Below are positions 12,485-39,001 of a DNA stretch of 64,000 nt, piece after piece. Numbering within the stretch: the first letter of the stretch is position 1; every line of letters begins with the position of its first letter. The translations under genes and the position numbers were made by a program. Origin of the DNA: a virus; the IMG/VR virus record IMGVR_UViG_3300027969_002881, positions 1 to 64,000 of that record, one strand, 5' to 3'. The notes under the pieces are model-generated. The model ran no database searches. It was not told the DNA's origin and saw nothing but the letters and a program-made list of their open reading frames with translations.

Positions 12485-12720
12485 TTAAATTCCTAAAAGA
12501 GCAAACATGGCAATTTTATTTTGAATGGCTATGTACGGCTGTTCTTATTATCGGAGTTGCCCTGACCAGTTATAATGTTTATCCTCTAAACATTTGGCTC
12601 AGTTGCCTAGGCAATCTAGGTTGGTTTGTTCTCGGTATACTATGGCGTAAGTGGAGTTTGATTATTGTTCAACTTATAGTTACATTAATCTATGTTGCAG
12701 GAATATATAATATACTATGA
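12481..12720 (+). CDS. Small three-TM membrane protein
   Basis: Three hydrophobic segments; similar architecture to 41260..41502. Confidence 0.6.
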   Translation: MIKFLKEQTWQFYFEWLCTAVLIIGVALTSYNVYPLNIWLSCLGNLGWFVLGILWRKWSLIIVQLIVTLIYVAGIYNIL

Positions 12721-16781: not shown

Positions 16782-17156
16782 ATGAAGAAGATGATTTGGG
16801 TTACCTTTCGTAAGGAAGGCATACACAAGTACCCAGCGGCTCTAACTGATCCTAACTTGGCTACCGGAGATGAATATGATGTCAGCTTTCTTGGCTATCC
16901 TCACAGACACATGTTCCATTTTAAAGTAGCCATTGAAGTGTTTCATGATGATCGTGACATTGAATTTATTCAATTTAAACGCTGGTTGGAAAATCTTTAT
17001 AAAGGTGCCATACTGGCATTAGACTTTAAAAGTTGCGAGATGATCGCAGAAGATTTGTACACACAAATTAATGCTCGCCATCCCGGCAGAGCAGTGACAA
17101 TAGAAGTAAGTGAGGACGGTGAAAATGGATGCTACATTCAATTTGAACAGAAGTAA
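16782..17156 (+). CDS. T-fold QueD-like protein, DpdL-like (LxxxHRHxF)
   Basis: FLGYPHRHMFHF replaces the QueD CxxxHGH motif; SCEMIAEDL and IEVSEDGENG match T-fold ends. Confidence 0.7.
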   Translation: MKKMIWVTFRKEGIHKYPAALTDPNLATGDEYDVSFLGYPHRHMFHFKVAIEVFHDDRDIEFIQFKRWLENLYKGAILALDFKSCEMIAEDLYTQINARHPGRAVTIEVSEDGENGCYIQFEQK

Positions 17157-17166
17157 GGTTAGAACA

Positions 17167-17526
17167 GTGCATAACAATAATAATTCTTATGTTAGTCGTG
17201 CAATGATTAATATCAATGATATTAAATATGACTTGCTAAAAATTGCCGAGTTATATGACGGTGTTTTACAAGAAGGATTGGGACACTTGCCCGCAGATAT
17301 GTTCCTGGCATATCTCAGTGATATGAGAAACGATCGGTGGATTCATAGTTATGAAATCACTGAAGTTATGCTCAAAGAGTATAGCTACACATATGATGTT
17401 GGTATTCAAATTACCAATGATCGCACTCCTAAGAAGCTAAAGATTCATGTTGGCTTATATAAGAGTACTTGGCCCGACTTGGCGTCTACCATGAAATATA
17501 ATGGTAGCGGTTATGTACGGTCTTAA
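17167..17526 (+). CDS. Hypothetical protein
   Basis: ORF from the track; start uncertain (GTG 17167 or ATG 17203). Confidence 0.55.
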   Translation: MHNNNNSYVSRAMININDIKYDLLKIAELYDGVLQEGLGHLPADMFLAYLSDMRNDRWIHSYEITEVMLKEYSYTYDVGIQITNDRTPKKLKIHVGLYKSTWPDLASTMKYNGSGYVRS

Positions 17527-17541
17527 TTTTTGTTTTAAAAA

Positions 17542-17549
17542 CCTAAATA
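17542..17549 (+). promoter_or_regulatory. Late-like promoter candidate (CCTAAATA) upstream of the TGT/DpdA-like gene
   Basis: Intergenic, followed by SD AAGGAG. Confidence 0.4.
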
Positions 17550-17573
17550 CAATCTCCAACAAAGGAGAAATAT

Positions 17574-19118
17574 ATGTTAAGTAAAAAAACTAGAATTGAC
17601 TTACAGGCAAGGAACAAAGATTATGCTGTGTTCCTTCCAAGTATCAGCGGCTTTTATCAAACCTTTATCAGTAAGGAAAGGAACAATCCTGGAGTGGATG
17701 TTCTTCCTGGTCGTGTTCCTGCTGAGTTTGAAAATGGTATAGAAGGATTTAACTTCCTTAACAAAGAAGAAGCATACTTCTACTATCCAGATTCATTATA
17801 TTCAGCAGGGCACGCCCAACTAGATATTGCCAAGAGTGACGTCGAAGAATCAATGATTCAAAAGCGCGATAAGAAAAATAATTTTATTCTCGGCGATAGT
17901 GGTGGATTCCAAATTGGCAAAGGTGTTATTAACTTTGATTGGCAACGCTTCTGGGAGAAACAAGGCGATGCTGGTTATATTGGCACTGCTGACAAAACTC
18001 GTATGTCTATCCTTAACTGGTTAGAACATACCGCTGACTATAGTATGGTACTTGATATTCCGACATGGAGTGCCGCCCCTATTAATCAAGAACGCACTGG
18101 CTTAAAGACTTTTAAAGATTGTCTAGATGGAACTTTGTTTAACAATGATTTTTTCTTAAAACATCGTAAAGGTCAAACTAAGTTTCTGAATGTTTTACAA
18201 GGCGGCAACAATGTTGATGCTGAGATTTGGTATGAAGCTGTAAAGCATTATCCATTCGAAGGTTGGGCCATGGGCGGTAATAATATGAAGGACGTAGACT
18301 TGATGTTACGTCGTTTAATTAAACTACGCGATGATAAATTGCTTGAACCCGGTCATGATGTTATCCACTTCTTGGGTACTAGTAAACTCGAGCTTGCTTG
18401 TTTGTTAACTGCGGTTCAGCGTAACATTCGTGAACATATTAATCCTAATATGAAGGTAACGTTTGACTGTGCTAGTCCATTTTTAGCTACTGCTTATGGA
18501 CAAGCGTATACACAACACGTTCACCAGAATAAACGTTTTAGTTATATCATGGATAAAGCTATCGATGACAGACGTCTTGCTGGTAATACAACTCCGTGGC
18601 CATGGAGTAGTCCCATTGGCGATAGAATGACCATGGGTGATATTTGTTATTACAAGCCCGGTGACTTGAACAAGCTAGGCAAAGAAAGCCGCACCAGCTG
18701 GGATAGCTTTAGTTATTTTATGATGATGGGACATAATGTCTTTCAGCATATTGAAAGTGTACAACGAGCCAATGCGTTACTAGATACTGCTTGTGCCTTA
18801 CACAAACCAGATCCAAGTAAGTTTAGTAAAGCCAAAGGTGTCAGTGCAGAGTTAAGTAACTGGGTTCCTCGTTCAGTAATTTATGGTGTCGAACTTATTA
18901 ATCGTGTGTTTACCAGCGAAACTCCTTATACTGAATTGGATAATGCTCAAGCATTACTGGCAGAACTTAATGGCAAGAAAACTCTTAAGACCACTGCTGT
19001 TAGTCATGGTATGTTGTTCGAAGACCTTGAGAAAGGTAACGACAATGATGCAGAAGCGGCTGAAGCATGGGATGAAGACCAAGCTGATGAAATTCTTGCT
19101 GAGGCATTAAATGGCTAA
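17574..19118 (+). CDS. dpdA: tRNA-guanine transglycosylase-like protein (DpdA-type deazaguanine DNA transglycosylase)
   Basis: GDSGGFQ, MVLDIP, VLQGG, GWAMGG, IHFLG and TFDCAS TGT-fold motifs; FolE, QueE and a QueD-like gene are nearby. Confidence 0.75.
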   Translation: MLSKKTRIDLQARNKDYAVFLPSISGFYQTFISKERNNPGVDVLPGRVPAEFENGIEGFNFLNKEEAYFYYPDSLYSAGHAQLDIAKSDVEESMIQKRDKKNNFILGDSGGFQIGKGVINFDWQRFWEKQGDAGYIGTADKTRMSILNWLEHTADYSMVLDIPTWSAAPINQERTGLKTFKDCLDGTLFNNDFFLKHRKGQTKFLNVLQGGNNVDAEIWYEAVKHYPFEGWAMGGNNMKDVDLMLRRLIKLRDDKLLEPGHDVIHFLGTSKLELACLLTAVQRNIREHINPNMKVTFDCASPFLATAYGQAYTQHVHQNKRFSYIMDKAIDDRRLAGNTTPWPWSSPIGDRMTMGDICYYKPGDLNKLGKESRTSWDSFSYFMMMGHNVFQHIESVQRANALLDTACALHKPDPSKFSKAKGVSAELSNWVPRSVIYGVELINRVFTSETPYTELDNAQALLAELNGKKTLKTTAVSHGMLFEDLEKGNDNDAEAAEAWDEDQADEILAEALNG

Positions 19119-19998
19119 AGCACTTATAATTGGATTAGGGTTTGGACAGGCTGTTTATCTGCCTGTGCTAACTGAACTTGGTTATGAGGTAATTACTGTT
19201 GACATGGATACATCTAAAGGTGCTGATTTTTCAAACCTAGACGATGCTATCCGTGTTCACGGTAAGTTTGATACTGTGAACATTTGTACACCAAACTTCA
19301 CACATATTAAATTAGCAAGAAAAGTAGCCGCATTAAGTAAAATTGTTTTTGTAGAAAAGCCAGGCGTAGCTAACAGTGAAGCATGGCGATGGCTTTGTAT
19401 TGATTATCCTCAGACTCGTTTTATGATGGTAAAGAATAACCAATATAGAGATACGATTGAACAGTTCAAAACACTAGCCAATCAAAGTCATACAGTTAGA
19501 ATTGTTTGGAATAATAAAAATCGTATTCCAAACCCAGGCAGTTGGTTCACTACCAAAGATTTGGCATTCGGTGGAGTTAGTCGAGATTTAATGCCTCATA
19601 TGTTAAGTTACTATGTGGCCTTGACAGACTATACAAAAGGTAATAAACTATACAGCAACGCAATACAACGACATGAACTCAAAGATCTTATTGATACTGA
19701 TTATGGTAGCGTCAATCATGATGGCACTTACAATGTCGATGACTTCTGTGAATTCGAATTTAAAAACGGCGATACAACTTGGGTCTTAACTGCCAACTGG
19801 AAAGACAATAAAGCCGACGATGTTTATATTAGTTTTGACATGAAGAATAGTGCTGCCAAGTTTGTTCTAGGATTATGTCCAGAAGAAGCATACAAGTCTA
19901 TGATAGAAAACGCTGTTACAAACCTAAATAATGATATGTTCTGGAAAGAACAATTACGACAGGATCTTTGGATTCATCGGCAAATAGAAAACTTATGA
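19111..19998 (+). CDS. Gfo/Idh/MocA-family NAD(P)-dependent oxidoreductase
   Basis: IIGLGFG Rossmann motif, ICTPNFTH, VFVEKPG, GGVSRDLMPH. Confidence 0.85.
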   Translation: MAKALIIGLGFGQAVYLPVLTELGYEVITVDMDTSKGADFSNLDDAIRVHGKFDTVNICTPNFTHIKLARKVAALSKIVFVEKPGVANSEAWRWLCIDYPQTRFMMVKNNQYRDTIEQFKTLANQSHTVRIVWNNKNRIPNPGSWFTTKDLAFGGVSRDLMPHMLSYYVALTDYTKGNKLYSNAIQRHELKDLIDTDYGSVNHDGTYNVDDFCEFEFKNGDTTWVLTANWKDNKADDVYISFDMKNSAAKFVLGLCPEEAYKSMIENAVTNLNNDMFWKEQLRQDLWIHRQIENL

Positions 19999-20900
19999 CA
20001 CGTATATTACAAACAACTGGCCAAGGTAACTTTACAGAAACAACTTGGATTAATCCAAAGTGCGGAGACTATGAAATTACTGTCGAAAGTATCATGACTG
20101 GTGTGTGTCGCAGTGACATCGATATGATGAATGGAGACTTTGGCCCGTTACCTATTAATATGCAGGGCCATGAAGGTCTAGGTCGCGTAATCAAAGTTGG
20201 TAAAAATATTGGTATGACGCAAGTAGGAGATATTGTAGCTACACGTGGTGAACCTGCTTATGCAGATGTATACAATGTTAGGGCCAACGAATATGTAGTG
20301 GTTCCAGAAGCACATCCAAAATATATATTAGAACCCGTTGCATGTGGAATTAATATTGTACAGCAACCTATTAGAGAAATTGCAGAACGTGCGGGTGCGA
20401 GTAAACGTTTACTAATACTGGGCAGTGGCTTTCTTGCGTGGGTTGCTTTCAATGTTATTCTTATTCATCATTTGGATTTTGAAATCACAGTAGTTGGGAA
20501 TAGTAATAAAGAACTTTGGGGTGAAGTTCTTCATCAAGAATATCAAGGCACATTTGATGTGGTCATTGATCTAAGCAGTAAGATGGATATTTTTGAGAAA
20601 CCTATTCTAAATAATGAAGCATTAGTAGTGTTTGGAAGTCAAAAGAAAGTAAGTACAGACTTCTCCAATTTACTTTGGAAAGCCTGTACTATGATATTCC
20701 CAAGTCCGAGAACAGACGGCTTTTATCATTGTATGAAGGATGCGGCATATTGGATTGAGCAAGGTGATATTGTAGTTGACAGTTTCTGGACTCGAGCGTA
20801 TAATAGAGACACTGAATGGCAACAAGCATTTGCTGATGGCCTCAACCGCCCTGCGGGTTATAGCAGGGGTTATATATATTGGAATAATAATGGCAATTGA
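19995..20900 (+). CDS. Zn-dependent (MDR) alcohol/sugar dehydrogenase
   Basis: GVCRSD, GHEGLG, VGDIV, EPVACG, LILGSG. Confidence 0.85.
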   Translation: MTRILQTTGQGNFTETTWINPKCGDYEITVESIMTGVCRSDIDMMNGDFGPLPINMQGHEGLGRVIKVGKNIGMTQVGDIVATRGEPAYADVYNVRANEYVVVPEAHPKYILEPVACGINIVQQPIREIAERAGASKRLLILGSGFLAWVAFNVILIHHLDFEITVVGNSNKELWGEVLHQEYQGTFDVVIDLSSKMDIFEKPILNNEALVVFGSQKKVSTDFSNLLWKACTMIFPSPRTDGFYHCMKDAAYWIEQGDIVVDSFWTRAYNRDTEWQQAFADGLNRPAGYSRGYIYWNNNGN

Positions 20901-21399
20901 TACAATAGGCCGTAAGGCTACAACTTATTTTATTGGTACAGAAGTAGAACGTACTGCTATGTATGGTGAACGTACATTGTTTGTAGTGGGTGTTCAGCCT
21001 GTGGATAAAATTGTTAGTTTACTTAATGAACATAAACTACGTCACATTTATCTTGGCACAAGTCAAAGTTTTACTCCCAAAGACTACGACGACTGGAAGG
21101 CATGGGATAAAATGATCATCGAATTACTAGAAGCTGGTTATTGGGTTACGTTAGACTTTGGCGTAGAATACGCCGATACATTTAACGAAGAGGGATGGAG
21201 TGAGTTCAATACATTTATTCCGATGATCAGTGTCAAACTTCCCTACATTAAACTATACAATTACAATGCTACATTAAAGATCGATGATACTACGTGGGGA
21301 CACAGTAACCCAGGAGTATGGTGTCATAGTCTACACGACTTAATGGATAGAAAAGTTTACACAGACTGGAAAGATTATGTAGGGGACGAAAATGTCTAA
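20890..21399 (+). CDS. Hypothetical protein in the dpdA-glycosyltransferase operon
   Basis: Coupled to its neighbours; start likely ATG 20890. Confidence 0.7.
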   Translation: MAIDTIGRKATTYFIGTEVERTAMYGERTLFVVGVQPVDKIVSLLNEHKLRHIYLGTSQSFTPKDYDDWKAWDKMIIELLEAGYWVTLDFGVEYADTFNEEGWSEFNTFIPMISVKLPYIKLYNYNATLKIDDTTWGHSNPGVWCHSLHDLMDRKVYTDWKDYVGDENV

Positions 21400-22450
21400 A
21401 ATCTTTCTAGTTGATTTAGAAGCAGTTAGCACACGTTATACTGGACAATGGAAAGAACATGTTCCACAATTACTTAGAGAAAAAGGCCATGAAGTTCAAG
21501 TTATCTCTGGTCCCACAGATATCCCTAGCGCCGCTACTCCTGGTGCATTTCTCAATTTTGGGGGCACTAATATCTATAAGGCAAACCAAGTTGAACAGCT
21601 TGGAAGACTTTTTTGCGAGGGATCCATTAATTCCGGCGATCACTTTGTGTTTACTGATGCATGGCACCCAGGTATTGTTAACTTAAAATATATGAGTGAA
21701 CTGCTGGGCATTCCAGTCGTTACACATGGCTTATGGCATGCCGGTAGTTATGATCCGCAAGACTTCTTAGGTCGTCTTGTTGGCAACAAGCCTTGGGTAC
21801 GCAATGCAGAGAAGAGTTTCTTTCACGCATTTGATCACAACTACTTTGCCACAGACTTTCACATTAACATGTTCTCAGATAATTTGTTTCATGATGAGGT
21901 TGTGGAGATGGAAGATGACAAAGTTATCCGCACTGGTTGGCCCATGGAATATATGGATGATACACTTAGTCCATATAAAAAATTAAACAAGCGTGATCTT
22001 ATTTTATTCCCGCATCGTCTTGCACCTGAGAAACAAGTTGAAATCTTCCGTGATTTAAAAACTCACTTACCGCAATATGAGTTTATTGTTTGTCAAGATG
22101 AACAATTAACTAAGAAACAATATCACACATTACTGGGACAGGCAAAGATGGTGTTCAGTGCTAACCTACAAGAAACATTGGGTATTAGTTGTTATGAAGG
22201 CGCTGTAGTAAATGCTATCCCAATGGTACCAGATAGACTAAGCTACAGCGAAATGTATTTAGATGTATTTAAATATGAAAGTAAATGGACAGAGTCATGG
22301 GAGTCGTACAATGTTTATCGTCCTGATCTATGCCGTGCCATTATAACACACATGGATTACTATCACACTCGATTACGTCAGCTTAAAGAACAAACAGAAT
22401 ATCTGGCTATGAATTTCTTTAGTGCGAAAGATCTGTTAAATAATCTGTAA
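21392..22450 (+). CDS. GT-B fold glycosyltransferase, GTDC1/QTMAN-like
   Basis: ILFPHRLAPEKQ, QETLGISCYEG (E-x7-E), PDRLSYSEMY. Confidence 0.8.
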   Translation: MSKIFLVDLEAVSTRYTGQWKEHVPQLLREKGHEVQVISGPTDIPSAATPGAFLNFGGTNIYKANQVEQLGRLFCEGSINSGDHFVFTDAWHPGIVNLKYMSELLGIPVVTHGLWHAGSYDPQDFLGRLVGNKPWVRNAEKSFFHAFDHNYFATDFHINMFSDNLFHDEVVEMEDDKVIRTGWPMEYMDDTLSPYKKLNKRDLILFPHRLAPEKQVEIFRDLKTHLPQYEFIVCQDEQLTKKQYHTLLGQAKMVFSANLQETLGISCYEGAVVNAIPMVPDRLSYSEMYLDVFKYESKWTESWESYNVYRPDLCRAIITHMDYYHTRLRQLKEQTEYLAMNFFSAKDLLNNL

Positions 22451-22893
22451 TGATTGTTATATATTTCTTATTATGGACGTTTACGTTGTACTGGATACAT
22501 CGTATTGGTCATAAAACGCCATTTGTAAAAAATTGGCACAGAGATCATCATAGTTACATAGTTAATTATGGATCACCGGGTTGGCAATGGAATAATTTAT
22601 TTTTGTTTAATGATACTTGGACTAGTACATTAGATTTATATGTAACCGAAGTTATTCCTACCCTACTGTTCAGTTTAATTACTGGGCAATGGTGGATCAG
22701 TGTATTCTATTATATATGGGCAGCCTTCTTCCAAGAAAGATTTGAACACAATAGTAACATAGATATGCCATTAGTTACTACAGGTAAATGGCATTTAATA
22801 CACCACCAGCAACCAACTAAGAATTACGGATTGTTCTTTCCCATATGGGATATATTATTTGGAACCTATAAACGTGTGGACCAGCGAAAATAA
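22450..22893 (+). CDS. Fatty acid hydroxylase / sterol desaturase superfamily membrane di-iron enzyme
   Basis: His boxes HRIGH, HRDHH and HLIHH plus hydrophobic segments. Confidence 0.8.
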   Translation: MIVIYFLLWTFTLYWIHRIGHKTPFVKNWHRDHHSYIVNYGSPGWQWNNLFLFNDTWTSTLDLYVTEVIPTLLFSLITGQWWISVFYYIWAAFFQERFEHNSNIDMPLVTTGKWHLIHHQQPTKNYGLFFPIWDILFGTYKRVDQRK

Positions 22894-23788
22894 TTGGTAT
22901 AAGTGGAGTTATGGCGCCATGGCTGCGTTTGAAAAACAAACCAGTGACTTGCCATTTAACACTAGTTACGACTGTGGCTTCGTTGGTGCCATTGGTTCTT
23001 TTAAAGAAGAACTTATAAGGGCGGCATCGAGTACACTAGATCATTATCCTGGATTAAAGCCATGTATATTCTTCAGTGGTGGGTCTGACAGTGAATTACT
23101 ACTGAGAACATATTTAGATATAGGATCAAATCCTGAAGTATATATTGTTAGGTATGAAAATGATTACAATATATACGATGTAAGCTATGCTATTACAATC
23201 TGTAATATATTAGGTGTTAAATATCATCTCATTGATTTTCAATTGGAAAAGTTTTATGATAGTGATGCTGAGAAAATATCTGAGCTTGCACAAATTGACA
23301 GGCCTAGAGCATTACCTTATTGTAAGTTTATGGAACTAGTTGACGGATTACCAATTCTAGGGCAAGGTGATCCACATTGGGTTAGATTGAATGATAATTA
23401 TTTACAGAAAGGTGAATGGAGATACCGAGACATGGAGGTATTTATTGGTTGGGACAAATACGCAAGATATTTAAACAGGCCAGCTATACCAGAATTTTTT
23501 AAATGGACGCCTGGTTTAATATTATCACATACTAAACTAGATTGGTTTAATAAATTGACAAATGATGAATACTCGGGCAAATTAGGTACTAATTCTACTA
23601 AATTGCAAGGTTACAAAGAAATATATTCAGACATGATTCACAGACAAAAACAAACTGGTTTTGAGAAAACCGACGCGATGATTAATAGTTTTGAACAATT
23701 TTTGTCAAAGAAATATAACGGTTTGCCTTATAGGCAACACCAAGATAGAACATTAGAAGAACTCAGGAAAGAAATATTAAATGATTAA
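22859..23788 (+). CDS. PP-loop (N-type ATP pyrophosphatase) protein
   Basis: FFSGGSDS motif. Confidence 0.65.
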   Translation: MEPINVWTSENNWYKWSYGAMAAFEKQTSDLPFNTSYDCGFVGAIGSFKEELIRAASSTLDHYPGLKPCIFFSGGSDSELLLRTYLDIGSNPEVYIVRYENDYNIYDVSYAITICNILGVKYHLIDFQLEKFYDSDAEKISELAQIDRPRALPYCKFMELVDGLPILGQGDPHWVRLNDNYLQKGEWRYRDMEVFIGWDKYARYLNRPAIPEFFKWTPGLILSHTKLDWFNKLTNDEYSGKLGTNSTKLQGYKEIYSDMIHRQKQTGFEKTDAMINSFEQFLSKKYNGLPYRQHQDRTLEELRKEILND

Positions 23789-24125
23789 AATACAAAGTTA
23801 TACTACAAGTCCTAGTTGGTATCAAGTAGACACCAGTCATAATCTACCCACTGTTACTGGCGCGGTACAATGGAACGGTAACAGTAAATGTTTTGAAGTT
23901 AGTATTGGTAATAGTTGGCAACGTATTGATAATACTGTTCAAGTTTCTCATAATTATGATATGAATATGGTTGCTCAATGGGTAATGAAAAAGATGTCGG
24001 AGGAAGAAGAAACTAAGAAACTGCGTAGTAAATATCCAGCACTAGACGAAGCATACAATCACTTAGAACTGATCAAAGCATTAGTAACTGTAGGGCCGGA
24101 AACAAATGATATTCAACAAAATTAA
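23781..24125 (+). CDS. Hypothetical protein
   Basis: ORF coupled within the operon. Confidence 0.7.
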   Translation: MIKIQSYTTSPSWYQVDTSHNLPTVTGAVQWNGNSKCFEVSIGNSWQRIDNTVQVSHNYDMNMVAQWVMKKMSEEEETKKLRSKYPALDEAYNHLELIKALVTVGPETNDIQQN

Positions 24126-24567
24126 AAAGTTAAAAGAAGATGGATTAAAAGTTGGCATAACTTTCAGTACCTTTGACTTATTTCACGCAGGGCATGTAGC
24201 AATGTTATCTGAAGCAAAAAATCACTGTGACTACCTTATTGCCGCATTACAGACTGATCCTACAATAGACCGTCCTAATACAAAAAATCCTCCCATACAA
24301 AGTATTGTAGAACGACAGATACAACTCAGTACCAATCGTAATGTAGATGAAGTTGTTATCTATCAAACAGAAAAAGACTTAGAAGACCTCTTGCTTATTT
24401 TGCCTATTGATGTTAGAATACTTGGAGTAGAGTACGCAGACAAAGAATTTACAGGAAAACAAATCTGTACAAATCGAGGAATTGAAATTGTATTCAACGG
24501 CAGGGATCATAGTTTTAGTTCAAGTAGTTTGCGTAAACGTGTAGCGGAAGCAGAAAGTAAAAAATGA
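24106..24567 (+). CDS. Cytidylyltransferase (glycerol-3-phosphate cytidylyltransferase/TagD-like)
   Basis: TFDLFHAGH (HxGH), RDHSFSSSSLR. Confidence 0.85.
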   Translation: MIFNKIKKLKEDGLKVGITFSTFDLFHAGHVAMLSEAKNHCDYLIAALQTDPTIDRPNTKNPPIQSIVERQIQLSTNRNVDEVVIYQTEKDLEDLLLILPIDVRILGVEYADKEFTGKQICTNRGIEIVFNGRDHSFSSSSLRKRVAEAESKK

Positions 24568-25370
24568 CAACAAAAATAGTAATTATTGGTTTAGGATTTG
24601 TAGGTAACGCTATCCACAAATCTTTAGATGGTTGGATGAGTAATGATACAATCAGTTTGATTGATCCGGGCAAAGGACTTAATACTCCTTATAGAGATAT
24701 CGAAGACTATGATGCTGCCTTTGTTTGTGTACCAAGTCCACAGAGCGCAGATGGTACTGCTGATACTAGCATACTAGAAAATGTATTGGCTACACTTGCC
24801 AGCGTTGACTTTAAAGGTGTAATCATTAGTAAAGTTACTGCACCACCTGGCGTTTATCAACGTCTACAAGAAAGTTATCCAAACTTAGTACACGCTCCGG
24901 AATTTTTAACTGCGGCCAATGCGGAAATAGATTATCGTAGTGGTAAGTTTGCTATTATCGGCGGTGCTGTGTCGGCATACAGAAACGAAGCTGAACGTAT
25001 TATTAAAATGACACAAACTAGTTTAAGTAGTGTTTTACATTGTAGTATTCAAGAAGCGGCATTGGCCAAGTATAGTATTAATTCTTTTCTAGCCACCAAA
25101 GTTGTTTTTATGAATGAGCTGGCATTGTTAGCCAACGAGTTAGACTGTGATTGGGAAACTATTCGTAATGCAATTACATTAGATAAGAGGATTGGGCAGA
25201 GTCATATGCAGGTACCCGGACCTGACGGTGATTATGGATTTGGTGGCATGTGCTTTCCAAAAGATACAACCGCATTACTCAAATGTGCGGAACAAGTCGA
25301 CGCAAAGCTAAGTGTTTTGGACACAGCAGTTAAAACTAACCTTATTTTACGCTTGACAGATCCTAAATAA
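24564..25370 (+). CDS. ugd: UDP-glucose/GDP-mannose dehydrogenase family protein lacking the C-terminal domain
   Basis: IIGLGFVG, FVCVPSP, PEFL, AKYSINSFLATK, GFGGMCFPKD; only 268 aa. Confidence 0.8.
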   Translation: MTTKIVIIGLGFVGNAIHKSLDGWMSNDTISLIDPGKGLNTPYRDIEDYDAAFVCVPSPQSADGTADTSILENVLATLASVDFKGVIISKVTAPPGVYQRLQESYPNLVHAPEFLTAANAEIDYRSGKFAIIGGAVSAYRNEAERIIKMTQTSLSSVLHCSIQEAALAKYSINSFLATKVVFMNELALLANELDCDWETIRNAITLDKRIGQSHMQVPGPDGDYGFGGMCFPKDTTALLKCAEQVDAKLSVLDTAVKTNLILRLTDPK

Positions 25371-25381
25371 TAGTGTATACT
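25353..25381 (+). promoter_or_regulatory. sigma70-type promoter with a nested late-like CCTAAATA (25362-25369) upstream of folE
   Basis: TTGACA-17-TATACT. Confidence 0.7.
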
Positions 25382-25428
25382 TAATACAACTGGCAACTAC
25401 CTCTGCCTTAACATAGGAAAAAATTATA

Positions 25429-26277
25429 ATGACAGCAACATTTAAAAAAGACGAATCCGTTCATGGAACAGCCTTTACATTTAAAAAAGACAACATTGTT
25501 GATACTGCGGAAATCAAAAACATGACTGAACCAGTAAAATTAGAAACAGGCCTGGACGCAATGGCAGGCGATGGCGGATACCAAGAAGAAAAGTATCTAG
25601 GAAACTATCTACGTTTTAAGATGAAACGTGACGGCAAAAGGTTCTGGGCAGGTGATAATATTAGTGAATATGTCAACGACCATAACAAAGAGCAACTGAT
25701 CGACGAAGCTGAAGAAGCATTTGAACTAGTGCTGGATCGTTTGCTTATTGACAGAGAGAACGATCCTAATAGTAAAGGTACCGCAAGACGACTTGCTAAA
25801 ATGTACTTTAATGAAATAATGGCAGGAAGATATGAACCAGCACCAGACGCAACAGCATTTCCAAACGACTCGCAGGATCGTTATGAGGGCATGTTGGTTG
25901 TTCGCAGTGAGCTTCGCAGTATGTGTAGTCATCATCATCAACCCGTTAGTGGCGTTGCTTATATTGGCATTATTGCCGCGGAAAAGCTCATTGGACTCAG
26001 CAAATACACAAGAATCGCACAATGGTGTGCCCGGCGAGGTACTCTCCAAGAGGAACTTGCTAATGACATTGCTAGGGAAATCGAAAAGGCCACGGGAGCC
26101 AAAAGCTTAGGCGTATATATACAAGCAGTACACGGGTGCTGTGAGAATCGTGGTATTATGGCACATAGCAGTCTAACACAGACCACAGTATTGAAAGGAT
26201 CTTTTAAAGAAGATCCGGGTGCAAAGAAAGAATTCTTTGACAATATTAAACTACAACAGGAGTTTGCTTCGCGATGA
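25429..26277 (+). CDS. folE: GTP cyclohydrolase I
   Basis: TARRLAKMY, SMCSHH, GLSKYTR, LQEEL, HGCCENRG. Confidence 0.92.
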   Translation: MTATFKKDESVHGTAFTFKKDNIVDTAEIKNMTEPVKLETGLDAMAGDGGYQEEKYLGNYLRFKMKRDGKRFWAGDNISEYVNDHNKEQLIDEAEEAFELVLDRLLIDRENDPNSKGTARRLAKMYFNEIMAGRYEPAPDATAFPNDSQDRYEGMLVVRSELRSMCSHHHQPVSGVAYIGIIAAEKLIGLSKYTRIAQWCARRGTLQEELANDIAREIEKATGAKSLGVYIQAVHGCCENRGIMAHSSLTQTTVLKGSFKEDPGAKKEFFDNIKLQQEFASR

Positions 26278-26483
26278 AAGATCCAGTAATAGAATCTAAT
26301 GCCAATGAATTAAAGTCATTAGTTGATCGAATTAATATTATTATGAGCGACCTACAAGATATGAATGTAGAAGTTAGGATTGCTTATATTGCCAAAGACG
26401 AGCCAGGACATCGTATTGATACAGATTCTGATAGACAGCGTATTAAACTTTGGAAAGTAGAAGAGCGTAATGGCTACATCTAA
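26274..26483 (+). CDS. Hypothetical protein
   Basis: ORF coupled to folE. Confidence 0.6.
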   Translation: MKDPVIESNANELKSLVDRINIIMSDLQDMNVEVRIAYIAKDEPGHRIDTDSDRQRIKLWKVEERNGYI

Positions 26484-26814
26484 GCCAGGCTATGGTGCTA
26501 TCCCGCCCGGCGGTACCAACGGATCCTTTCTAACTGCTAATGGCTTGAATGGTACTAATTGGTCAGCTCATAACATCCCGCAACATACTAATGCTGTTCA
26601 AATCGGTAATCCTGATCCTGTTATTACATTTAAATTGGACGGTGATATTGTTACCAAAGCAGGAACTATTACAGCAGATGATTGGATCTCTGTTATTAAA
26701 ATCACGAAACAGTTGATCATGGACATGAGCAATGATGAGGAATTAGTATCTAAATATCCATATATACGAGACGCGGCGCATATTTGGATGATGAACAAAC
26801 TTAAAGGAGAATGA
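26470..26814 (+). CDS. Hypothetical protein
   Basis: ORF from the track. Confidence 0.6.
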   Translation: MATSKPGYGAIPPGGTNGSFLTANGLNGTNWSAHNIPQHTNAVQIGNPDPVITFKLDGDIVTKAGTITADDWISVIKITKQLIMDMSNDEELVSKYPYIRDAAHIWMMNKLKGE

Positions 26815-26815
26815 T

Positions 26816-26989
26816 ATGAACGAAAATATTAAACAACTAGCCATAGAGTGTTATAACCCTTATGGCAATTTTGACACCAAAAAGTTCGCCGAGTTGATTG
26901 TGCAGGCATGTGCTAAACGCTCAGAAGAACTAGGACAACCTGAACTAGGAACAGGATTAATGAAACATTTTGGAGTTGACCATGAGTAA
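26816..26989 (+). CDS. Small hypothetical protein (57 aa, not in ORF track)
   Basis: MNENIKQLAIECYNPYGNFDTKKFAELIVQAC...; SD AAGGAG upstream; fills the gap exactly. Confidence 0.65.
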   Translation: MNENIKQLAIECYNPYGNFDTKKFAELIVQACAKRSEELGQPELGTGLMKHFGVDHE

Positions 26990-27155
26990 ATTTTTAAGTT
27001 GGTTTGAGCGTAATCGCAAATCCATTGGCTATGTAATCGGTGGCGTCAATTTAGGATCTGGCGTTGGACATATTATTAATGGCGATATTGCCAATGGTGT
27101 GGTATATGTTATATTAGGATTGGTACTAGTTTTAGATACAAGGATGTTCAAATGA
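26982..27155 (+). CDS. Small membrane protein
   Basis: Two hydrophobic segments. Confidence 0.55.
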   Translation: MSKFLSWFERNRKSIGYVIGGVNLGSGVGHIINGDIANGVVYVILGLVLVLDTRMFK

Positions 27156-27658
27156 GTAAAGTATATCTAATTAAGCCTCTACACAAGAAAAGTGTAGTAT
27201 GGCACGTAGAAATGTTTCGCGAAAATGCCGATGGTAGTATTAGCTGGTTTAACATTGACGAAACATATCGTTGGGGACAGGGCTTTATCGAAGAAGATCT
27301 AGACTGTAATCTTCCTTGGCAAGGTGACAATGTTGCTTACGCTCGAGCAGATGTAGGCTGGGGTTGCGAATTCGATGATAGTTGCAGTGTTGAATGGGAA
27401 TTCAGCGATGACATTCCAGAATTAGAACAACAAGAACTCAAAGAAGCATACTACGAAGGTGGTGCAGGTTGGTTGTATGATGGTGAACATGATTGGCAGG
27501 AAGAAGATTGTGCGGTACACATCATTGCACCATATCAAGTTGATTTGTGTGAAGAAGATGGTACGGTCATTGAAGAAAATATTAAACTTAAATCGCGGCC
27601 GGTAACAAGCAATGAATGGCCGTTTGTATTTCCAAAAGACAGCGAACAAGGAGGCTAA
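27152..27658 (+). CDS. Acidic hypothetical protein
   Basis: ORF from the track, ATGA-coupled. Confidence 0.7.
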   Translation: MSKVYLIKPLHKKSVVWHVEMFRENADGSISWFNIDETYRWGQGFIEEDLDCNLPWQGDNVAYARADVGWGCEFDDSCSVEWEFSDDIPELEQQELKEAYYEGGAGWLYDGEHDWQEEDCAVHIIAPYQVDLCEEDGTVIEENIKLKSRPVTSNEWPFVFPKDSEQGG

Positions 27659-27659
27659 T

Positions 27660-27902
27660 ATGGCAACACGCAAAAAGAAATCAGATCTTATAGGTAATTC
27701 AAAAATTATACTATCAGAAACTAAAATAGTTAAAGAAAGTCATTTAACAATTACATACAATAATGGTTATCCTGAAAAATTAGAATGGGATGACGAGGCG
27801 TTGTTACGGGACGTTAGACTTGCTATTCTGACAGCAGAAAGTAAGATACCCGTAAGTGAAGAATCAAAAGAAAGATGGACGCAAGAAGCAGGCGGCCTAT
27901 AA
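27660..27902 (+). CDS. Hypothetical protein
   Basis: Start at ATG 27660 after AAGGAGG. Confidence 0.65.
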   Translation: MATRKKKSDLIGNSKIILSETKIVKESHLTITYNNGYPEKLEWDDEALLRDVRLAILTAESKIPVSEESKERWTQEAGGL

Positions 27903-27909
27903 AATATAA

Positions 27910-28149
27910 ATGGGCAAGTCGCAACAACTGATATCTCTTAACTTTTGGGAATCCAAACAGTTAGAATATTGGATAGAAGATAATTTTCCAGATTGTCGAG
28001 TTCGTTGTCTTTACGATACTTGGAGTGATCCGGAGCAAAAAGAATGGTATGCCATAGAAGGTAATATTACACTTGACATGGAACTACTTCTGAAGTTAAA
28101 ATATGGTAATAAATTAAAAGGCTCTAACGCAGGAATAAGATATGGATAA
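27910..28149 (+). CDS. Hypothetical protein
   Basis: ORF from the track. Confidence 0.6.
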   Translation: MGKSQQLISLNFWESKQLEYWIEDNFPDCRVRCLYDTWSDPEQKEWYAIEGNITLDMELLLKLKYGNKLKGSNAGIRYG

Positions 28150-29002
28150 AATTAAAGTAAGTGAAATCTTTTATAGCGCACAAGGAGAAGGTCGATTTAT
28201 TGGCGTACCTAGTGTGTTCTTTCGAACATTTGGTTGTAACTTTAAATGTGGCGGTTTTGGCCTGCCCACAGGAGAAAAGACTACTGAGCCTGATGACATA
28301 GGCGCTAAAGTTCACTTGTATAAAACATTTATGGATCTGCCACTAGCACAAACTGGTTGTGATAGTTATGCTAGTTGGCATCCTGCATTTAAGCATCTAA
28401 GTCCTTATTATAGCATTGATGAAGCTATCGACGAGATGTTAAAGCTAACTCCCAACCATGCTTGGAAACAGGACAATGGCAATGACGTACATCTTGTCAT
28501 TACAGGCGGTGAGCCTTTACTAGGATGGCAACAACTATATCCAGATTTGCTAAGTGAAAACAAGATGCGCGATCTCGAAAACTTAACCTTTGAGACAAAC
28601 GGCACTCAACACTTGCATGAAGACTTTAAACGTTTCTTAACAAACGACTATCACTTGCGTAAAGATCAAATTACATTTAGTGTTAGCCCTAAGCTAAGTG
28701 CCAGCGGAGAATCTTGGAAAGACGCCGTCTGTCCAGAAGTAGTAGTAGAATATCAAACACGAGGTTTTACATATTTAAAGTTTGTTGTTGACAAGTTAGA
28801 GGACTTCAAAGAAGTAGATGCCGCAACAGCAGAATACAGAGAAGCAGGATTTAAAGGTCCTGCGTTTGTCATGCCTGTAGGTGGCACTGATGCCGCATAC
28901 TTTGCTAACAGTAAACACATTGCTGACATTGCTTTAGAACGAGGTTATCGATATAGTCCTAGACTACATGTAGACATTTGGAGTAATGGGTGGGGTAAGT
29001 AA
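28142..29002 (+). CDS. queE: 7-carboxy-7-deazaguanine synthase (radical SAM), with an insertion in the cluster motif
   Basis: SEIFYSAQGEG, FFRTFGCNFKC-x36-CDS, VITGGEP, FETNGT, SVSPKL, RLHVDIW. Confidence 0.88.
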   Translation: MDKIKVSEIFYSAQGEGRFIGVPSVFFRTFGCNFKCGGFGLPTGEKTTEPDDIGAKVHLYKTFMDLPLAQTGCDSYASWHPAFKHLSPYYSIDEAIDEMLKLTPNHAWKQDNGNDVHLVITGGEPLLGWQQLYPDLLSENKMRDLENLTFETNGTQHLHEDFKRFLTNDYHLRKDQITFSVSPKLSASGESWKDAVCPEVVVEYQTRGFTYLKFVVDKLEDFKEVDAATAEYREAGFKGPAFVMPVGGTDAAYFANSKHIADIALERGYRYSPRLHVDIWSNGWGK

Positions 29003-29376
29003 TGTTTGGAACAGGATATACCGGAGGAGATCCAATGAAAGCACAAACACCTGCAAAAGGTATAATGTTTGATGCAGATTATGGCAATAGTAAAACGTAC
29101 ACCATTGCCTGCGATTGTCAAGATGGTGATCATCAAGTTCATATGTGGATTGAACTGAACGGAGATAAAGATACACAGGACATTGAAATGACATTCTATG
29201 TAAATACTACCACGCCCTTCTGGAAAGAAGGATTTAGTCGTGTTAAGGCCGCATGGGATATTTTAGTACATGGCTATAGAGAAGATCAGCATTCATTGAT
29301 CTTAAACAAACAAGCGGCATTGAATGTCGCTAGTACAATTACAACTGTAATAGAAGAATTAGAAGGAATTAAATGA
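29002..29376 (+). CDS. Hypothetical protein
   Basis: Contains CDC...H, possibly metal-binding. Confidence 0.65.
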
Positions 29377-30473
29377 GTTATTTGTTTACCAGTGAGAGTG
29401 TGTCGGAAGGACACCCAGATAAAGTTGCTGATGCTATCAGTGATGCCGTATTAGATTTAGTTATGGCGCAACAAAATCCTTCACTTAGATGTGCTTGTGA
29501 AACTCTTGTTACAACTAATAGAGTTGTTGTTGCAGGCGAGTACAAAGGTGTTTTGCCTCCGGAAGAAGTAGAAGTTGCTATTCGAAAAGTTATCAAAGAC
29601 ATTGGCTACGAGCAAAGTGGGTTTGATTGGCGTACTGCGGAAATTACAAACTTACTTCACGGGCAAAGTGCTGATATTGCTTTAGGCACAGATAACTTCG
29701 GCGCCGGGGATCAAGGCTTGATGTTTGGCTATGCGTGTAATGAAACTGACACCTACATGCCTAGTGCAATTTATTGGAGCCATCGCATTGTAGAAGAGCT
29801 TACTCGTCTACGAAAAAATGGTATGATGGAATGGCTCGGCCCAGACGCTAAGAGTCAGGTTACATTTGAATACAATGATGATGGCTCACCTAGACGTATT
29901 GCCAAGATTGTATGTAGTACACAGCATAGAGAAAGCGTTAGTCTTGGCGATATTAGGACTAGTGTCAAAGATGTTATTAAAAATATTTTACCCGGTAAGT
30001 ATGTTGATGACAATACTGAGTTTTATATTAATCCTACTGGCAGGTTTGTTATTGGTGGCCCTGATGGTGATACAGGTCTCACCGGTCGTAAGATTATTGT
30101 TGATACTTATGGTGGGTATAGCCCTCATGGGGGCGGGGCTTTCTCAGGGAAAGATCCCACAAAGGTGGACCGTAGCGCCGCTTACTTAACTCGCTACTTG
30201 GCTAAGAACATTGTAGCAAGTGGCAAGGCGCCCTGGGCCACATGTCAAATTAGCTATGCTATTGGTATGGCGCAACCAATGAGTTTTTATATTGAAACAG
30301 CTGATACAAAACAAAGTCGTGAATTGACTAAATGGGTTCAAGAAAACGTTGATTTAACACCAAAAGGTATTATTGATCGTTTTAACTTATTTAGGCCTAT
30401 ATATAACTTAACAACTAATTATGGACACTTTGGTAAAGCATATTTGCCATGGGAAGAAGTGGACTTATTTTAA
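29373..30473 (+). CDS. metK: S-adenosylmethionine synthetase
   Basis: [47 protein letters not shown]. Confidence 0.97.
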
Positions 30474-34305: not shown

Positions 34306-34306
34306 C

Positions 34307-35494: not shown

Positions 35495-35497
35495 ATA
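35490..35497 (+). promoter_or_regulatory. T4-like late promoter candidate (CATAAATA)
   Basis: Upstream of SD AAGGAG and ATG 35528. Confidence 0.5.
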
Positions 35498-35527
35498 TAT
35501 ATAGTAACTAACCCCTAAGGAGATTAT

Positions 35528-35845: not shown

Positions 35846-35860
35846 AATAATATTCCCGCA

Positions 35861-38996: not shown

Positions 38997-39001
38997 ACTT
39001 T

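Follow-up and report, generated by a model that had tools for sequence, protein, structure and literature searches.

The region 16782-30473 of the window (the whole stretch of 64,000 nucleotides that was analysed), which belongs to the genome of an uncultured giant phage, adjoins the genes of a family B DNA polymerase (polB) and a sliding clamp, and its gene content supports an assignment as a 7-deazaguanine DNA-modification module (Table 1). All genes named in a preliminary description of the DNA were found there on the plus strand, and the module it placed beside polB and the clamp was supported by a DpdL signature, a TGT fold, FolE, QueE and MetK. The genes form one same-strand and mostly overlapping run, as described, with stop/start overlaps at most of the computed junctions: -8 for DpdA-like to Gfo, -8 for o207 to the glycosyltransferase (GT), -1 for GT to FA_hydroxylase, -8 for PP-loop to o114, -20 for o114 to the cytidylyltransferase (CT) and -4 for CT to the UGD-like gene, followed by +58 to folE. 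The MDR dehydrogenase reading frame opens at 19968 but the likely start is the ATG at 19995, giving a junction of -4 (ATGA) with the Gfo gene, while the frame of o207 opens at 20776 and a start at 20890, taken from the family alignment, would give a junction of -11. What had been left as an insert before the cytidylyltransferase could be resolved into an FA_hydroxylase-family protein, a PP-loop protein and the 114-aa protein.

Table 1. Genes of the modification module and its flank in the window.
Feature	Position	Strand	Basis or remark
Family B DNA polymerase	12717..15362	+	Context; 46% identical to PA5oct DNA polymerase
Sliding-clamp-like protein	15484..16221	+	Context; homologue of Phosso "sliding clamp beta" and PA5oct EST35_0314
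DpdL-type T-fold protein, 124 aa	16782..17156	+	LGYPHRHMF motif; phrog_17812, E 6e-36
Unassigned protein, 138 aa	17110..17526	+	No family match
Candidate DpdA-like DNA-guanine transglycosylase, TGT fold, 514 aa	17574..19118	+	AF2 model and Foldseek
Gfo/Idh/MocA NAD(P) oxidoreductase, accessory	19111..19998	+	PF01408, E 1.8e-7, above cut-off
Zn-dependent MDR dehydrogenase, accessory	19995..20900	+	PF08240 ADH_N, E 1.9e-9
Orphan core protein o207, ~170 aa	20890..21399	+	Family start from alignment
GT4-type (GT-B) glycosyltransferase	21392..22450	+	EX7E motif; family-level Pfam matches
FA_hydroxylase-superfamily membrane di-iron protein, 147 aa, rare accessory	22450..22893	+	PF04116, E 2e-17
PP-loop ATP-pyrophosphatase, 309 aa, rare accessory	22859..23788	+	SGGSDS at residue 73
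Unassigned protein o114, 114 aa	23781..24125	+	No family match
TagD/ECT-like cytidylyltransferase, accessory	24106..24567	+	PF01467, E 1.3e-9
UDP-glucose/GDP-mannose-dehydrogenase-like (UGD-like) protein, 268 aa, accessory	24564..25370	+	PF00984, E 1e-22; PF03721, E 1e-10
GTP cyclohydrolase I (FolE)	25429..26277	+	PF01227, E 8e-38, residues 96-273
QueE-like radical-SAM CDG synthase	28142..29002	+	phrog_2076, E 2e-51
Unassigned protein after QueE, 124 aa	29002..29376	+	No family match
S-adenosylmethionine synthetase (MetK)	29373..30473	+	Three MetK Pfam domains, E 4e-32 to 3e-57

The first gene of the module had been described as QueD/DpdL-like. The DpdL part of this name holds, as LGYPHRHMF fits the DpdL signature LxxxHRHxF, while the QueD signature CxxxHGH (PMC10516641) is missing and Pfam PTPS gave no match. 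The protein is 36% identical to CGPG_00067 of phage phiST (E 1e-11), and the motif is kept by every DpdL homologue in a comparison set of 81 related loci (80 IMG/VR contigs and PA5oct, many of them truncated). DpdL has been put forward, as a proposal only and for phiST too, as a CDG decarboxylase yielding 7-deazaguanine (PMC10516641). FolE carries an N-terminal extension of ~95 aa, and QueE, which the NCBIfam QueE models match below their cut-offs, is homologous to its counterparts in all eight compared phages; MetK is a plausible supplier of SAM for QueE. No canonical QueD or QueC was found in 127,886 bases (~35% of the genome). The PP-loop protein was considered as a QueC orthologue and rejected, with only its P-loop stretch fitting the QueC models, below cut-offs, and no match to PF06508.

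For the 514-aa protein, previously called a dpdA-like TGT, the fold was recovered by modelling but the family assignment was not, as no Pfam, PHROG or NCBIfam match was obtained. The AF2 model is good (pLDDT 82.8, pTM 0.83) and every one of its top Foldseek matches in PDB is a Z. mobilis TGT (E 5e-8, probability 1.00), which is what identifies the protein as a TGT. Matches in BFVD are phage TGT/DpdA proteins, including that of nt-1 and the DpdA3 of phiST. Within the family D108 (in DSGGFQ), D161 and D298 (in FDC) are invariant, and hhalign against E. coli Tgt aligned the FDC, QG and GG motifs. From the model, the protein is a candidate DpdA-like DNA-guanine transglycosylase.

A synteny survey, one of the checks named in the preliminary description, revealed that the gene order recurs in the 80 IMG/VR contigs and in PA5oct, and the arrangement is not due to chance, although the IMG/VR loci owe much of their synteny to common descent and to that extent are not independent evidence. 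The conserved core consists of the DpdA-like protein, o207, DpdL, GT, FolE and QueE, in the order DpdA-o207-DpdL-GT-FolE...QueE; polB precedes the DpdA-like gene in 73 of the 81 loci, and the sliding clamp is present in 80. Counts for o207 (68/81), GT (62/81) and FolE (46/81) come from a set in which many loci are truncated; few genes accompany the DpdA-like and DpdL genes as faithfully as GT. The remaining sugar genes and the dehydrogenase pair are optional extras outside the core: the cytidylyltransferase occurs in 9 of 81 loci, the UGD-like gene in 10 (always of the same short length), and the Gfo and MDR dehydrogenases in seven, always paired and always between DpdA and o207. The place given earlier to two dehydrogenases in the pathway was therefore not supported as stated. 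MetK is found in four of the loci, the FA_hydroxylase and PP-loop proteins in only two (L004 and L008), and homologues of the 138-aa protein in 20 (adjoining DpdL), of the 114-aa protein in five and of the 124-aa protein in L003, L004 and L008. The variable slots are also filled by unrelated genes encoding peptide deformylase, thymidine kinase, redoxin and subtilase.

Alignment A3 of o207 shows invariant E18, E20, K130, D132 and D133. The family comprises 837 clusters in the 50% library and has homologues in ACP17 and in PA5oct, where the gene lies away from this locus, while no Pfam, PDB or Atlas assignment was found. Among the accessory enzymes, the Gfo/Idh/MocA protein shows EKP and D-x3-H motifs, and PDB alcohol dehydrogenases align to residues 30–91 only of the MDR protein. 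In PDB the cytidylyltransferase matches an ethanolamine-phosphate cytidylyltransferase at E 4e-13 and a glycerol-3-phosphate cytidylyltransferase at E 4e-11. The protein first read as a UDP-sugar dehydrogenase belongs to that family and shows the catalytic-Cys motif GFGGMCFPKD, but it is only 268 aa long; it aligns to residues 81–301 of a 446-aa UGDH and lacks the C-terminal UDP-binding domain. A search for Tet_JBP gave no match, and neither did its control.

That the module contains a genuine glycosyltransferase was borne out by its recurrence among the 81 loci and by its presence in seven other phage lineages, again inside deazaguanine clusters. Glycos_transf_1 and Glyco_transf_4 give weak matches across the family, in which E261-x7-E269 is invariant; the GT of the window falls below the Pfam cut-off, whereas its homologues in L030 and L036 exceed it (32.8 and 27.0 bits versus 26.4). 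As hhalign relates the window GT family to these two (probability 98%, E 6e-14) and Atlas sister clusters carry the name GT family 1, the enzyme is, by way of its relatives, classified as GT4-type. Its own structure model is poor (pLDDT 52). The lineages counted as seven are cultured ones (PA5oct group, Phosso, ACP17, X1/BUDD, BCSR5 and BUCT-ZZ01) with differing gene orders, and in them GT lies 0–3 kb from DpdL or DpdA, adjoining DpdL in four and DpdA in two. NDP-sugar enzymes abut GT in three configurations: here Gfo and MDR, CT and UGD; in other clades an SDR epimerase/dehydratase overlapping GT in 12 loci, or a CTP_transf-cupin (nucleotidyltransferase-cupin) fusion abutting it in four.

The explanation that we favour, at about even probability, is a post-replicative and QueC-free modification of guanine in DNA, of the DpdL/DpdA3 kind and extended by sugar chemistry. 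FolE would form dihydroneopterin triphosphate, which a QueD of the host, or one encoded outside the 35% of the genome examined, would convert to CPH4, and QueE, supplied by MetK, would then produce 7-carboxy-7-deazaguanine. The DpdL-type T-fold protein would process this compound, in the literature proposal by decarboxylation to 7-deazaguanine, and the DpdA-like enzyme would swap guanine in DNA for the deazapurine. GT may add a sugar to the inserted base or its precursor, with the Gfo/MDR pair, the cytidylyltransferase and the UGD-like enzyme tailoring the sugar or its donor in this phage. The analysis establishes the gene identities, the TGT fold, the GT4 membership by way of relatives, the tight packing of the run and its linkage conserved across lineages; the chemistry past CDG we infer, including the sugar, its acceptor atom and the sequence of steps. 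Against a sugar decoration stand the lack of an obvious hydroxyl acceptor in 7-deazaguanine and the occurrence of the Gfo/MDR, CT, UGD, FA_hydroxylase and PP-loop genes in just 2–10 of 81 loci. The hydroxymethyl handle suggested earlier is purely conjectural, and the cyclitol variant found no support, since the proposed cyclase search revealed no sugar-phosphate cyclase or inositol-phosphate synthase in 128 kb and the relatives carry NDP-sugar enzymes beside GT.

The closest described system is that of the Cellulophaga phage phiST (PMC10516641), which shares FolE, QueE, a DpdL with LxxxHRHxF, a TGT-superfamily DNA transglycosylase candidate, the lack of QueC and a location among replication genes, and whose product is 2'-deoxy-7-deazaguanosine. 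It differs in having no GT4 glycosyltransferase and no o207 homologue and in the length of its DpdA3 (259 aa versus 514 aa here), and the window has in addition the two dehydrogenases, the cytidylyltransferase, the UGD-like protein, the di-iron hydroxylase and the PP-loop enzyme. Bacterial Dpd and phage DpdA1/DpdA2 systems (preQ0, ADG, G+, preQ1) likewise insert, by a TGT-superfamily enzyme, a deazaguanine made from GTP via FolE, QueD and QueE, but need QueC (and DpdB, DpdC, QueF, Gat-QueC or ArcS), whereas the locus here has no QueC orthologue and the 514-aa protein gave no match to Pfam TGT. The Pseudomonas jumbo phage PA5oct (Wroclawvirus) has the order polB, clamp, DpdA-like, GT, DpdL, QueE, RNaseH (identities 38% for DpdA-like, 44% for GT, 59% for DpdL and 32% for QueE) but lacks the dehydrogenase pair, CT, UGD, FA_hydroxylase and PP-loop genes at the locus, and FolE and two PTPS genes are encoded there at a distance of 50 kb. 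The resistance of PA5oct DNA to five restriction enzymes follows a pattern pointing to a modified G, and the END-nuclease preprint, which did not identify the base, names QueE and PTPS but not the DpdA-like gene or GT (PMC12191111). When ACP17 dpdL and dpdA were expressed in E. coli by themselves, no dDG was obtained, and other enzymes may be needed according to the authors (PMC10516641).

It is possible, though rather unlikely, that the DNA carries a known base only (dDG/dCDG, as in phiST or phi-Grn1-type phages) and that GT, like the sugar-nucleotide genes, is directed at another target, for instance host envelope glycans or virion proteins, these genes being placed here since early/replication-region blocks collect auxiliary genes. 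PhiST contains plain dDG with DpdL and DpdA3 present (PMC10516641) and no GT. GT is also absent from the DpdL clusters of RHph_I1_18, D479 and Ahp1 and missing from four loci with full flanks, and in PhiXhv phages a distant relative of GT lies among amino-sugar genes, with no deazaguanine genes around it; the patchy accessory sugar genes and the unrelated genes in the variable slots point the same way. This is countered by the linkage of GT to DpdL or DpdA across seven lineages of differing gene order, by its translational coupling inside the run and by a conservation across the 81 loci that equals that of FolE and QueE. Pteridine glycosides in cyanobacteria are made with FolE, a PTPS-type T-fold protein and a glycosyltransferase, ingredients that are all present here, and the host of BUCT-ZZ01 is Synechococcus elongatus PCC 7942. 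GT might then glycosylate a small molecule (pterin or free deazapurine) instead of DNA, the glycoside being a metabolite or the substrate of DpdA, for which the long DpdA-like proteins of GT-bearing phages (416–540 aa versus 259 aa in phiST) leave room in a larger pocket. We regard this as improbable: the cluster invariably includes QueE and a TGT-fold enzyme, so that the pathway continues to deazapurines and nucleic acid, and a PDB search with the GT-family profile gave chance-level matches only at E <= 10.

TGT-fold enzymes are classically tRNA enzymes, and the GT4-type QTMAN glycosylates 7-deazaguanine in tRNA. A DpdA-like enzyme acting on tRNA, with GT making a glycosylated queuosine-like base as QTMAN/GTDC1 does in animals, is nevertheless very improbable. 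QTMAN shares with the GT here a GT4-type GT-B fold and, as proposed, a 7-deazaguanine derivative in nucleic acid as acceptor, but searches of the GT family and the genome revealed no QTMAN_N domain (PF12038), and the acceptor of QTMAN is the cyclopentenediol of queuosine, which cannot be made here because the pathway has no QueC, QueF, QueA or QueG. The cluster lies between polB/clamp and RNaseH, it is the DNA of PA5oct that withstands restriction where the sites contain G, and all phages with deazaguanine DNA in a published survey encode a DpdA (PMC10516641). The target here is most likely DNA. The least probable alternative, scarcely to be expected, is a glycosylation of hydroxymethyl-pyrimidines in DNA by GT that is unconnected with the deazaguanine genes. 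The T4 alpha- and beta-glucosyltransferases are GT-B enzymes of similar size, are encoded together with base-modification genes and shield DNA post-replicatively, as hypothesised here, and PA5oct and Phosso encode a thymidylate-synthase-family gene. ACP17, BUCT-ZZ01 and X1 have GT but no hydroxymethylase of that family, which rules out hydroxymethyl-pyrimidines as its acceptor in these phages; the window encodes ThyX. T4 also differs in its acceptor, hydroxymethylcytosine and not a purine analogue, and the family here is GT4-type with EX7E.

In the searchable literature no description of a glycosylated deazaguanine in DNA was found. Under the favoured explanation, a sugar-extended deazaguanine modification, the outcome would be a lineage-specific decoration shielding the DNA from restriction, and the gene set thus predicts a sugar-bearing purine in DNA.

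The contig from which the window is taken (127,886 bases, viral in IMG/VR) was estimated by CheckV to be about 35% complete, and is therefore a fragment of a jumbo-phage genome. The preliminary description had placed one tightly packed + strand gene run directly after the polymerase and clamp genes, and this run was recovered: family scans assigned eight of its genes, and all junctions from the DpdA-like gene to the gene of a UDP-glucose-dehydrogenase-like (UGD-like) protein overlap or abut (-8, -4, -11, -8, -1, -35 or later, -8, -20 and -4). No phage record matched the region in megablast, and a 138-aa protein was without match in Pfam, PHROG and NCBIfam scans.

Features of the window and of related loci, with the minimum number of the 81 surveyed loci carrying each gene
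Feature	Position	Strand	Assignment or context	Loci (of 81)
Family B polymerase	12717-15362	+	upstream of the run	
Sigma-70 match	15433		before the clamp gene	
Clamp-like gene	15484-16221	+	between polymerase and run	
DpdL-type protein, 124 aa	16782-17156	+		at least 74
DpdA-like protein, 514 aa	17574-19118	+		
Gfo/Idh/MocA oxidoreductase (Gfo)		+	PF01408	at least 7, as pair with MDR
Zn-MDR dehydrogenase (MDR)		+	ADH_N	at least 7, as pair with Gfo
Sigma-70 consensus	20776-20804		within 3' end of the MDR gene	
Orphan protein o207	20890-21399	+		at least 68
Glycosyltransferase (GT), 352 aa	21392-22450	+		at least 62
FA_hydroxylase protein		+	family scan	at least 2, with PP-loop
Cytidylyltransferase		+	PF01467	at least 9
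UGD-like protein		+	family scan	at least 10
Sigma-70 match	25353		before FolE	
FolE N-terminal extension	25429-25713			
FolE				at least 46
Sigma-70 match	28073		before QueE	
QueE				at least 37
MetK		+	family scan	at least 4
Sigma-70 match	30786		ahead of a gene at 30818	
Second operon	33127-40647	+		
PP-loop paralogs	33127-34305; 36817-38055		second operon	
PA5oct DNA polymerase	L001:5605-10831		two annotated pieces	
PA5oct phosphoribosyltransferase	L001:15946-16380			
Phosphoribosyltransferase/HIT region	L040:16052-16771; L068:16792-17262; L003:18689-19761		three related loci	
HhH-GPD domain protein	L041:16888-17343		inside modification region	
Distant GT relative	L093:3669-6903		Xanthomonas phage PhiXhv-15	

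When analysing the region for promoters, a perfect sigma-70 consensus (TTGACA, 17 nt, TATAAT) was identified some 85 nt before o207 begins, together with four further sites matching at 11-12 of 12 positions, and the run may be transcribed from several early-type promoters. The polymerase of the window is uninterrupted, in contrast to the PA5oct annotation where a Hef-like homing endonuclease separates two pieces. The second tightly packed operon encodes two paralogous PP-loop proteins (29% identical), a cytochrome P450, a TctC/Bug-type solute-binding protein, a FabD-like acyltransferase and a PhyH dioxygenase, and looks like a small-molecule tailoring pathway.

The 514-aa protein had no match to any Pfam, PHROG or NCBIfam model, and both single-sequence and profile searches of its family against PDB sequences gave chance-level matches only. 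Its AF2 model, built with 25 relatives (pLDDT 82.8, pTM 0.83), showed a TGT-type TIM-barrel fold, and in Foldseek against PDB the best 50 matches were all TGT (E 5e-8 to 3e-7, prob 1.00, target-normalised TM 0.43-0.55), while among the predicted viral structures of BFVD phage TGT/DpdA proteins were found, such as those from Vibrio phage nt-1 and DpdA3 of the Cellulophaga phage phiST. Across 25 sequences D108 (DSGGFQ), D161 and D298 (TFDCASP) do not vary, and D108 and the FDC nucleophile D298 presumably have the catalytic roles that their counterparts hold in the TGT of Z. mobilis. Alignment with hhalign placed TFDCASP on MFDCVMP of E. coli Tgt, with QG and GG motifs also aligned, and joined the family to a 424-aa ACP17 protein across the catalytic region (E 1.8e-4). 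The TGT model PF01702 did not match the 514-aa protein and reached one of 25 relatives at E 0.046; the family is too divergent for this model, as is DpdA3 (PMC10516641). The proposed identity of a dpdA-like TGT is thus upheld by the fold and by the intact catalytic-type Asp residues. The DNA of PA5oct is restriction-resistant, which bears indirectly on guanine exchange (PMC12191111).

The 124-aa protein, previously called QueD/DpdL-like, reads LGYPHRHMF, which is the DpdL signature LxxxHRHxF and not the CxxxHGH of QueD, so that the DpdL half of the name stands and the QueD half is dropped. This signature was defined for DpdL of phiST, a proposed decarboxylase of 7-carboxy-7-deazaguanine (CDG), an activity unproven even there (PMC10516641). 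It is kept by all homologs in the 81 loci, with PA5oct reading HFH. The protein is 36% identical to the phiST DpdL, CGPG_00067, over 93% of the query (tblastn, E 1e-11), a blastp comparison of eight phages places the two in a single family, and the genomic context also agrees, with DpdA, FolE and QueE present and QueC absent. FolE scored 130 bits against PF01227 (cut-off 27); its cyclohydrolase domain begins at residue 96, behind an extension of about 95 residues that has no family match. The QueE-like protein matched phrog_2076 'QueE-like' over its full length (E 2e-51) and is homologous to annotated QueE in seven other phages, the NCBIfam QueE equivalogs scoring 31-46 bits, below cut-offs of 200-300. 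The module is accordingly predicted to hold the enzymes from GTP to CDG, QueD excepted. The absence of QueD from the incomplete contig is not meaningful, since in the complete PA5oct genome FolE and two PTPS genes lie 50 kb away from the cluster. PF06508 (QueC) found nothing at the locus. A 309-aa PP-loop protein was rejected as QueC, for which a full-length match to PF06508 or TIGR00364 was required: only residues 57-144, the PP-loop stretch, matched (E 5e-4 to 2e-3), with scores well short of the cut-offs. With the two PP-loop proteins encoded downstream it shares the P-loop motif alone, so that close paralogy was rejected as well.

The 352-aa protein had no match when first scanned against Pfam, PHROG and NCBIfam; it reaches Glyco_transf_4 at E 0.096 only, has no above-cut-off match to Glycos_transf_1, and its family gave only chance-level matches to PDB sequences in single-sequence and profile searches. 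PF00534 was matched by five of 21 close relatives (best E 0.0094), and more divergent homologs in the loci L030 and L036 exceed the Pfam cut-off (32.8 and 27.0 bits versus 26.4, the former at E 6e-8) and are joined to the family by hhalign (prob 98%). The EX7E motif of the C-terminal domain, with E261 and E269, is invariant in 21 sequences and also found in PA5oct and in relatives of 40-57% identity. The AF2 model was poor (pLDDT 52) with a visible beta-alpha-beta pattern; its longest VIA alignments were to the GT-B enzymes starch synthase, sucrose-phosphate synthase and sterol glucosyltransferase, at Z 8-9 and tied with CheY-like folds, and at this pLDDT the search does not separate GT-B from CheY-like Rossmann folds. 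The protein is accepted as a GT4-type GT-B glycosyltransferase. A resemblance to QTMAN/GTDC1 failed on its single testable feature, the QTMAN_N domain (PF12038), which was found neither in 21 family members (E <= 1) nor in the genome (E <= 10). In phage PhiXhv-15 the distant relative (26% identity, 64% of the query) lies behind genes for a GlmS-like aminotransferase and an LmbE/BshB-type deacetylase, with no deazaguanine genes nearby, and it may belong to a different glycosylation system.

The survey across 80 IMG/VR loci and PA5oct, in which genes were counted within 10 kb and the counts are lower bounds since many contigs are cut, revealed a usual order of polB, clamp, DpdA-like gene, o207, DpdL, (o138), GT, FolE and then QueE and RNaseH. 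These counts and this order place the GT and o207 in the core. The Gfo and MDR genes were never found apart and always occupied the interval between DpdA and o207; of the sugar and redox genes earlier described as one module, the GT is therefore a core member and the Gfo/MDR pair an optional insert. A scan of a genome collection with the GT, which reaches close relatives only, recovered nine MAG contigs (GTDB) from bins of Crocinitomicaceae, Fischerella, Neomarinimicrobiota (one of 335 kb), Erysipelotrichaceae, a Methanobacteriota archaeon and Legionellales. All nine (L097-L105) carry polB, clamp, DpdA, o207, DpdL, GT, FolE, QueE and RNaseH in phage synteny; mis-binning of jumbo-phage DNA, and not bacterial islands, is the most likely explanation.

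Among other phages, tblastn revealed GT homologs in the PA5oct group, Phosso, ACP17, X1, BUDD, BCSR5 and BUCT-ZZ01, in every case with a DpdL homolog at 0-3 kb. In the annotated regions the GT lies within a deazaguanine cluster whose gene order differs between phages: QueD, FolE, o207 homolog, DpdA3, GT, DpdL, QueE in ACP17; FolE, ..., GT, 'queuine tRNA-ribosyltransferase', DpdL, QueE in X1; DpdL, ..., GT, 446-aa protein, ..., QueE, FolE in BCSR5; QueE, XGPRT, QueD, FolE, two long ORFs, DpdL, GT in BUCT-ZZ01; and clamp, ..., DpdL, GT, FolE, QueE in Phosso. A GT4-type transferase is locked to DpdL-type and TGT-fold genes, with sugar-nucleotide enzymes around it.

The orphan o207 (207-aa ORF, protein of ~170 aa) had no match in Pfam, PHROG and NCBIfam scans, its family gave chance-level matches only to PDB sequences in single-sequence and profile searches, nothing above 0.9 was found in the ESM Atlas, a deep profile search recovered its own family alone, and a Pfam scan of 20 members showed no consistent family. 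Comparisons by hhalign with phiST CGPG_00066 and with the Phosso 'glycosylase' were negative. Longer members were considered as DpdL fusions, but the extra length consists of low-complexity tails; in P0270, P0274, P0285, P0290, P0298, P0309 and P0348 these are acidic or proline-rich, comprise 100-180 residues and end in a conserved basic motif of the type '...DPLGK...KKPKAKK'.

Between FolE and QueE, a purine-type phosphoribosyltransferase, annotated XGPRT in BUCT-ZZ01, was found in 35 related loci and a HIT-domain protein in 24. The window has neither at its o96/o79 junction. The phosphoribosyltransferase may plausibly salvage guanine freed in base exchange. In five loci, a protein with an HhH-GPD (EndoIII/Ogg-type) DNA glycosylase domain lies inside the modification region, which deserves attention because END nucleases sense modified bases through an inactivated EndoIII domain.

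Enzymes that could supply the sugar differ between loci. In 12 related loci the gene immediately downstream of the GT, which it overlaps, encodes an NDP-sugar epimerase/dehydratase (PF01370, E 1e-50); in four, a fusion of a CTP_transf-like domain with a mannose-6-phosphate-isomerase cupin abuts the GT upstream. The cytidylyltransferase of the window is closest to ethanolamine-phosphate and glycerol-3-phosphate cytidylyltransferases, and its UGD-like protein matches the N-terminal and central domains with the catalytic-Cys region kept, lacks the C-terminal UDP-binding domain and stops at a point corresponding to residue ~301 of 446, its relatives being equally short. Three different donor-tailoring arrangements around one GT family speak for sugar transfer as a genuine function of the module, and one that diversifies. 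In the proposed pathway DpdL would convert CDG to 7-deazaguanine (DG), the DpdA-like enzyme would put DG into DNA, the GT would add a sugar after insertion or beforehand, and Gfo/MDR, the cytidylyltransferase and the UGD-like protein would tailor that sugar.

The weakest point of this proposal is chemical, as 7-deazaguanine has no evident hydroxyl group that could accept a sugar. Either the base put into DNA differs from plain DG, or a handle is created by o207 or some other enzyme, or the sugar is attached through an N-, C- or acyl-glycosidic bond. For the cyclitol route of the preliminary description, a search of the 128-kb contig, about 35% of the genome, found no DHQ-synthase-type cyclase or inositol-phosphate synthase, which with 65% of the genome absent is weak evidence against it. 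Taken together, sugar-decorated deazaguanine in DNA is given about an even chance. The DNA of phiST was shown to contain plain dDG, the DG deoxynucleoside (PMC10516641). In an all-against-all comparison DpdL and QueE were found in eight of eight phages and the GT in seven, phiST being the one without it; DpdL clusters free of GT are also found in RHph_I1_18, D479 and Ahp1. That the DNA carries a known base while the GT serves another purpose is regarded as rather unlikely. The remainder falls to glycosylation of a precursor, a tRNA target or a pyrimidine target; for the last, a T4-like hydroxymethyl-pyrimidine acceptor is unlikely because ACP17, BUCT-ZZ01 and X1 lack a thymidylate-synthase-family gene. 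A Tet_JBP search, blank like its controls, carries no information.

No description of a glycosylated deazaguanine in DNA turned up in the literature searched. To our knowledge, 7-deazaguanine DNA modifications all carry small substituents at C7, and all glycosylated DNA bases are hydroxymethyl-pyrimidines or, in the case of base J, hydroxymethyluracil. The 2023 paper defining DpdL and DpdA3 never mentions a glycosyltransferase and reports that dpdL and dpdA alone gave no dDG in E. coli (PMC10516641), a failure for which a sugar step would account. A preprint on END nucleases names QueE and a PTPS gene for PA5oct and applies mass spectrometry to other phages only (PMC12191111).

The joint reading, to which we give slightly less than an even chance, is that the virion DNA of this phage and of phages sharing the DpdA-like/DpdL/GT core bears 7-deazaguanine with a sugar, the decorations being lineage-specific and o207 supplying the missing step. 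As several carriers are cultured (PA5oct, ACP17, Phosso, X1, BCSR5 and BUCT-ZZ01), the prediction is directly testable, and the module family is abundant, the DpdA-like protein and the GT each having >8,000 clusters of relatives at 90% identity in metagenomes. If true, DNA would for the first time be known to contain a glycosylated purine analogue; donor tailoring by dehydrogenase pairs, epimerase/dehydratases, nucleotidyltransferases and UGD-like proteins would yield a family of decorations, the UGD-like enzyme without its nucleotide-binding domain might oxidise a sugar already on DNA, and o207 would perform a missing chemical step such as making the acceptor. A sugar on a deazapurine would then constitute a new class of DNA hypermodification, with bearing on restriction, on Type IV and END-nuclease recognition, on the sequencing of such genomes and on enzymes useful for DNA labelling.
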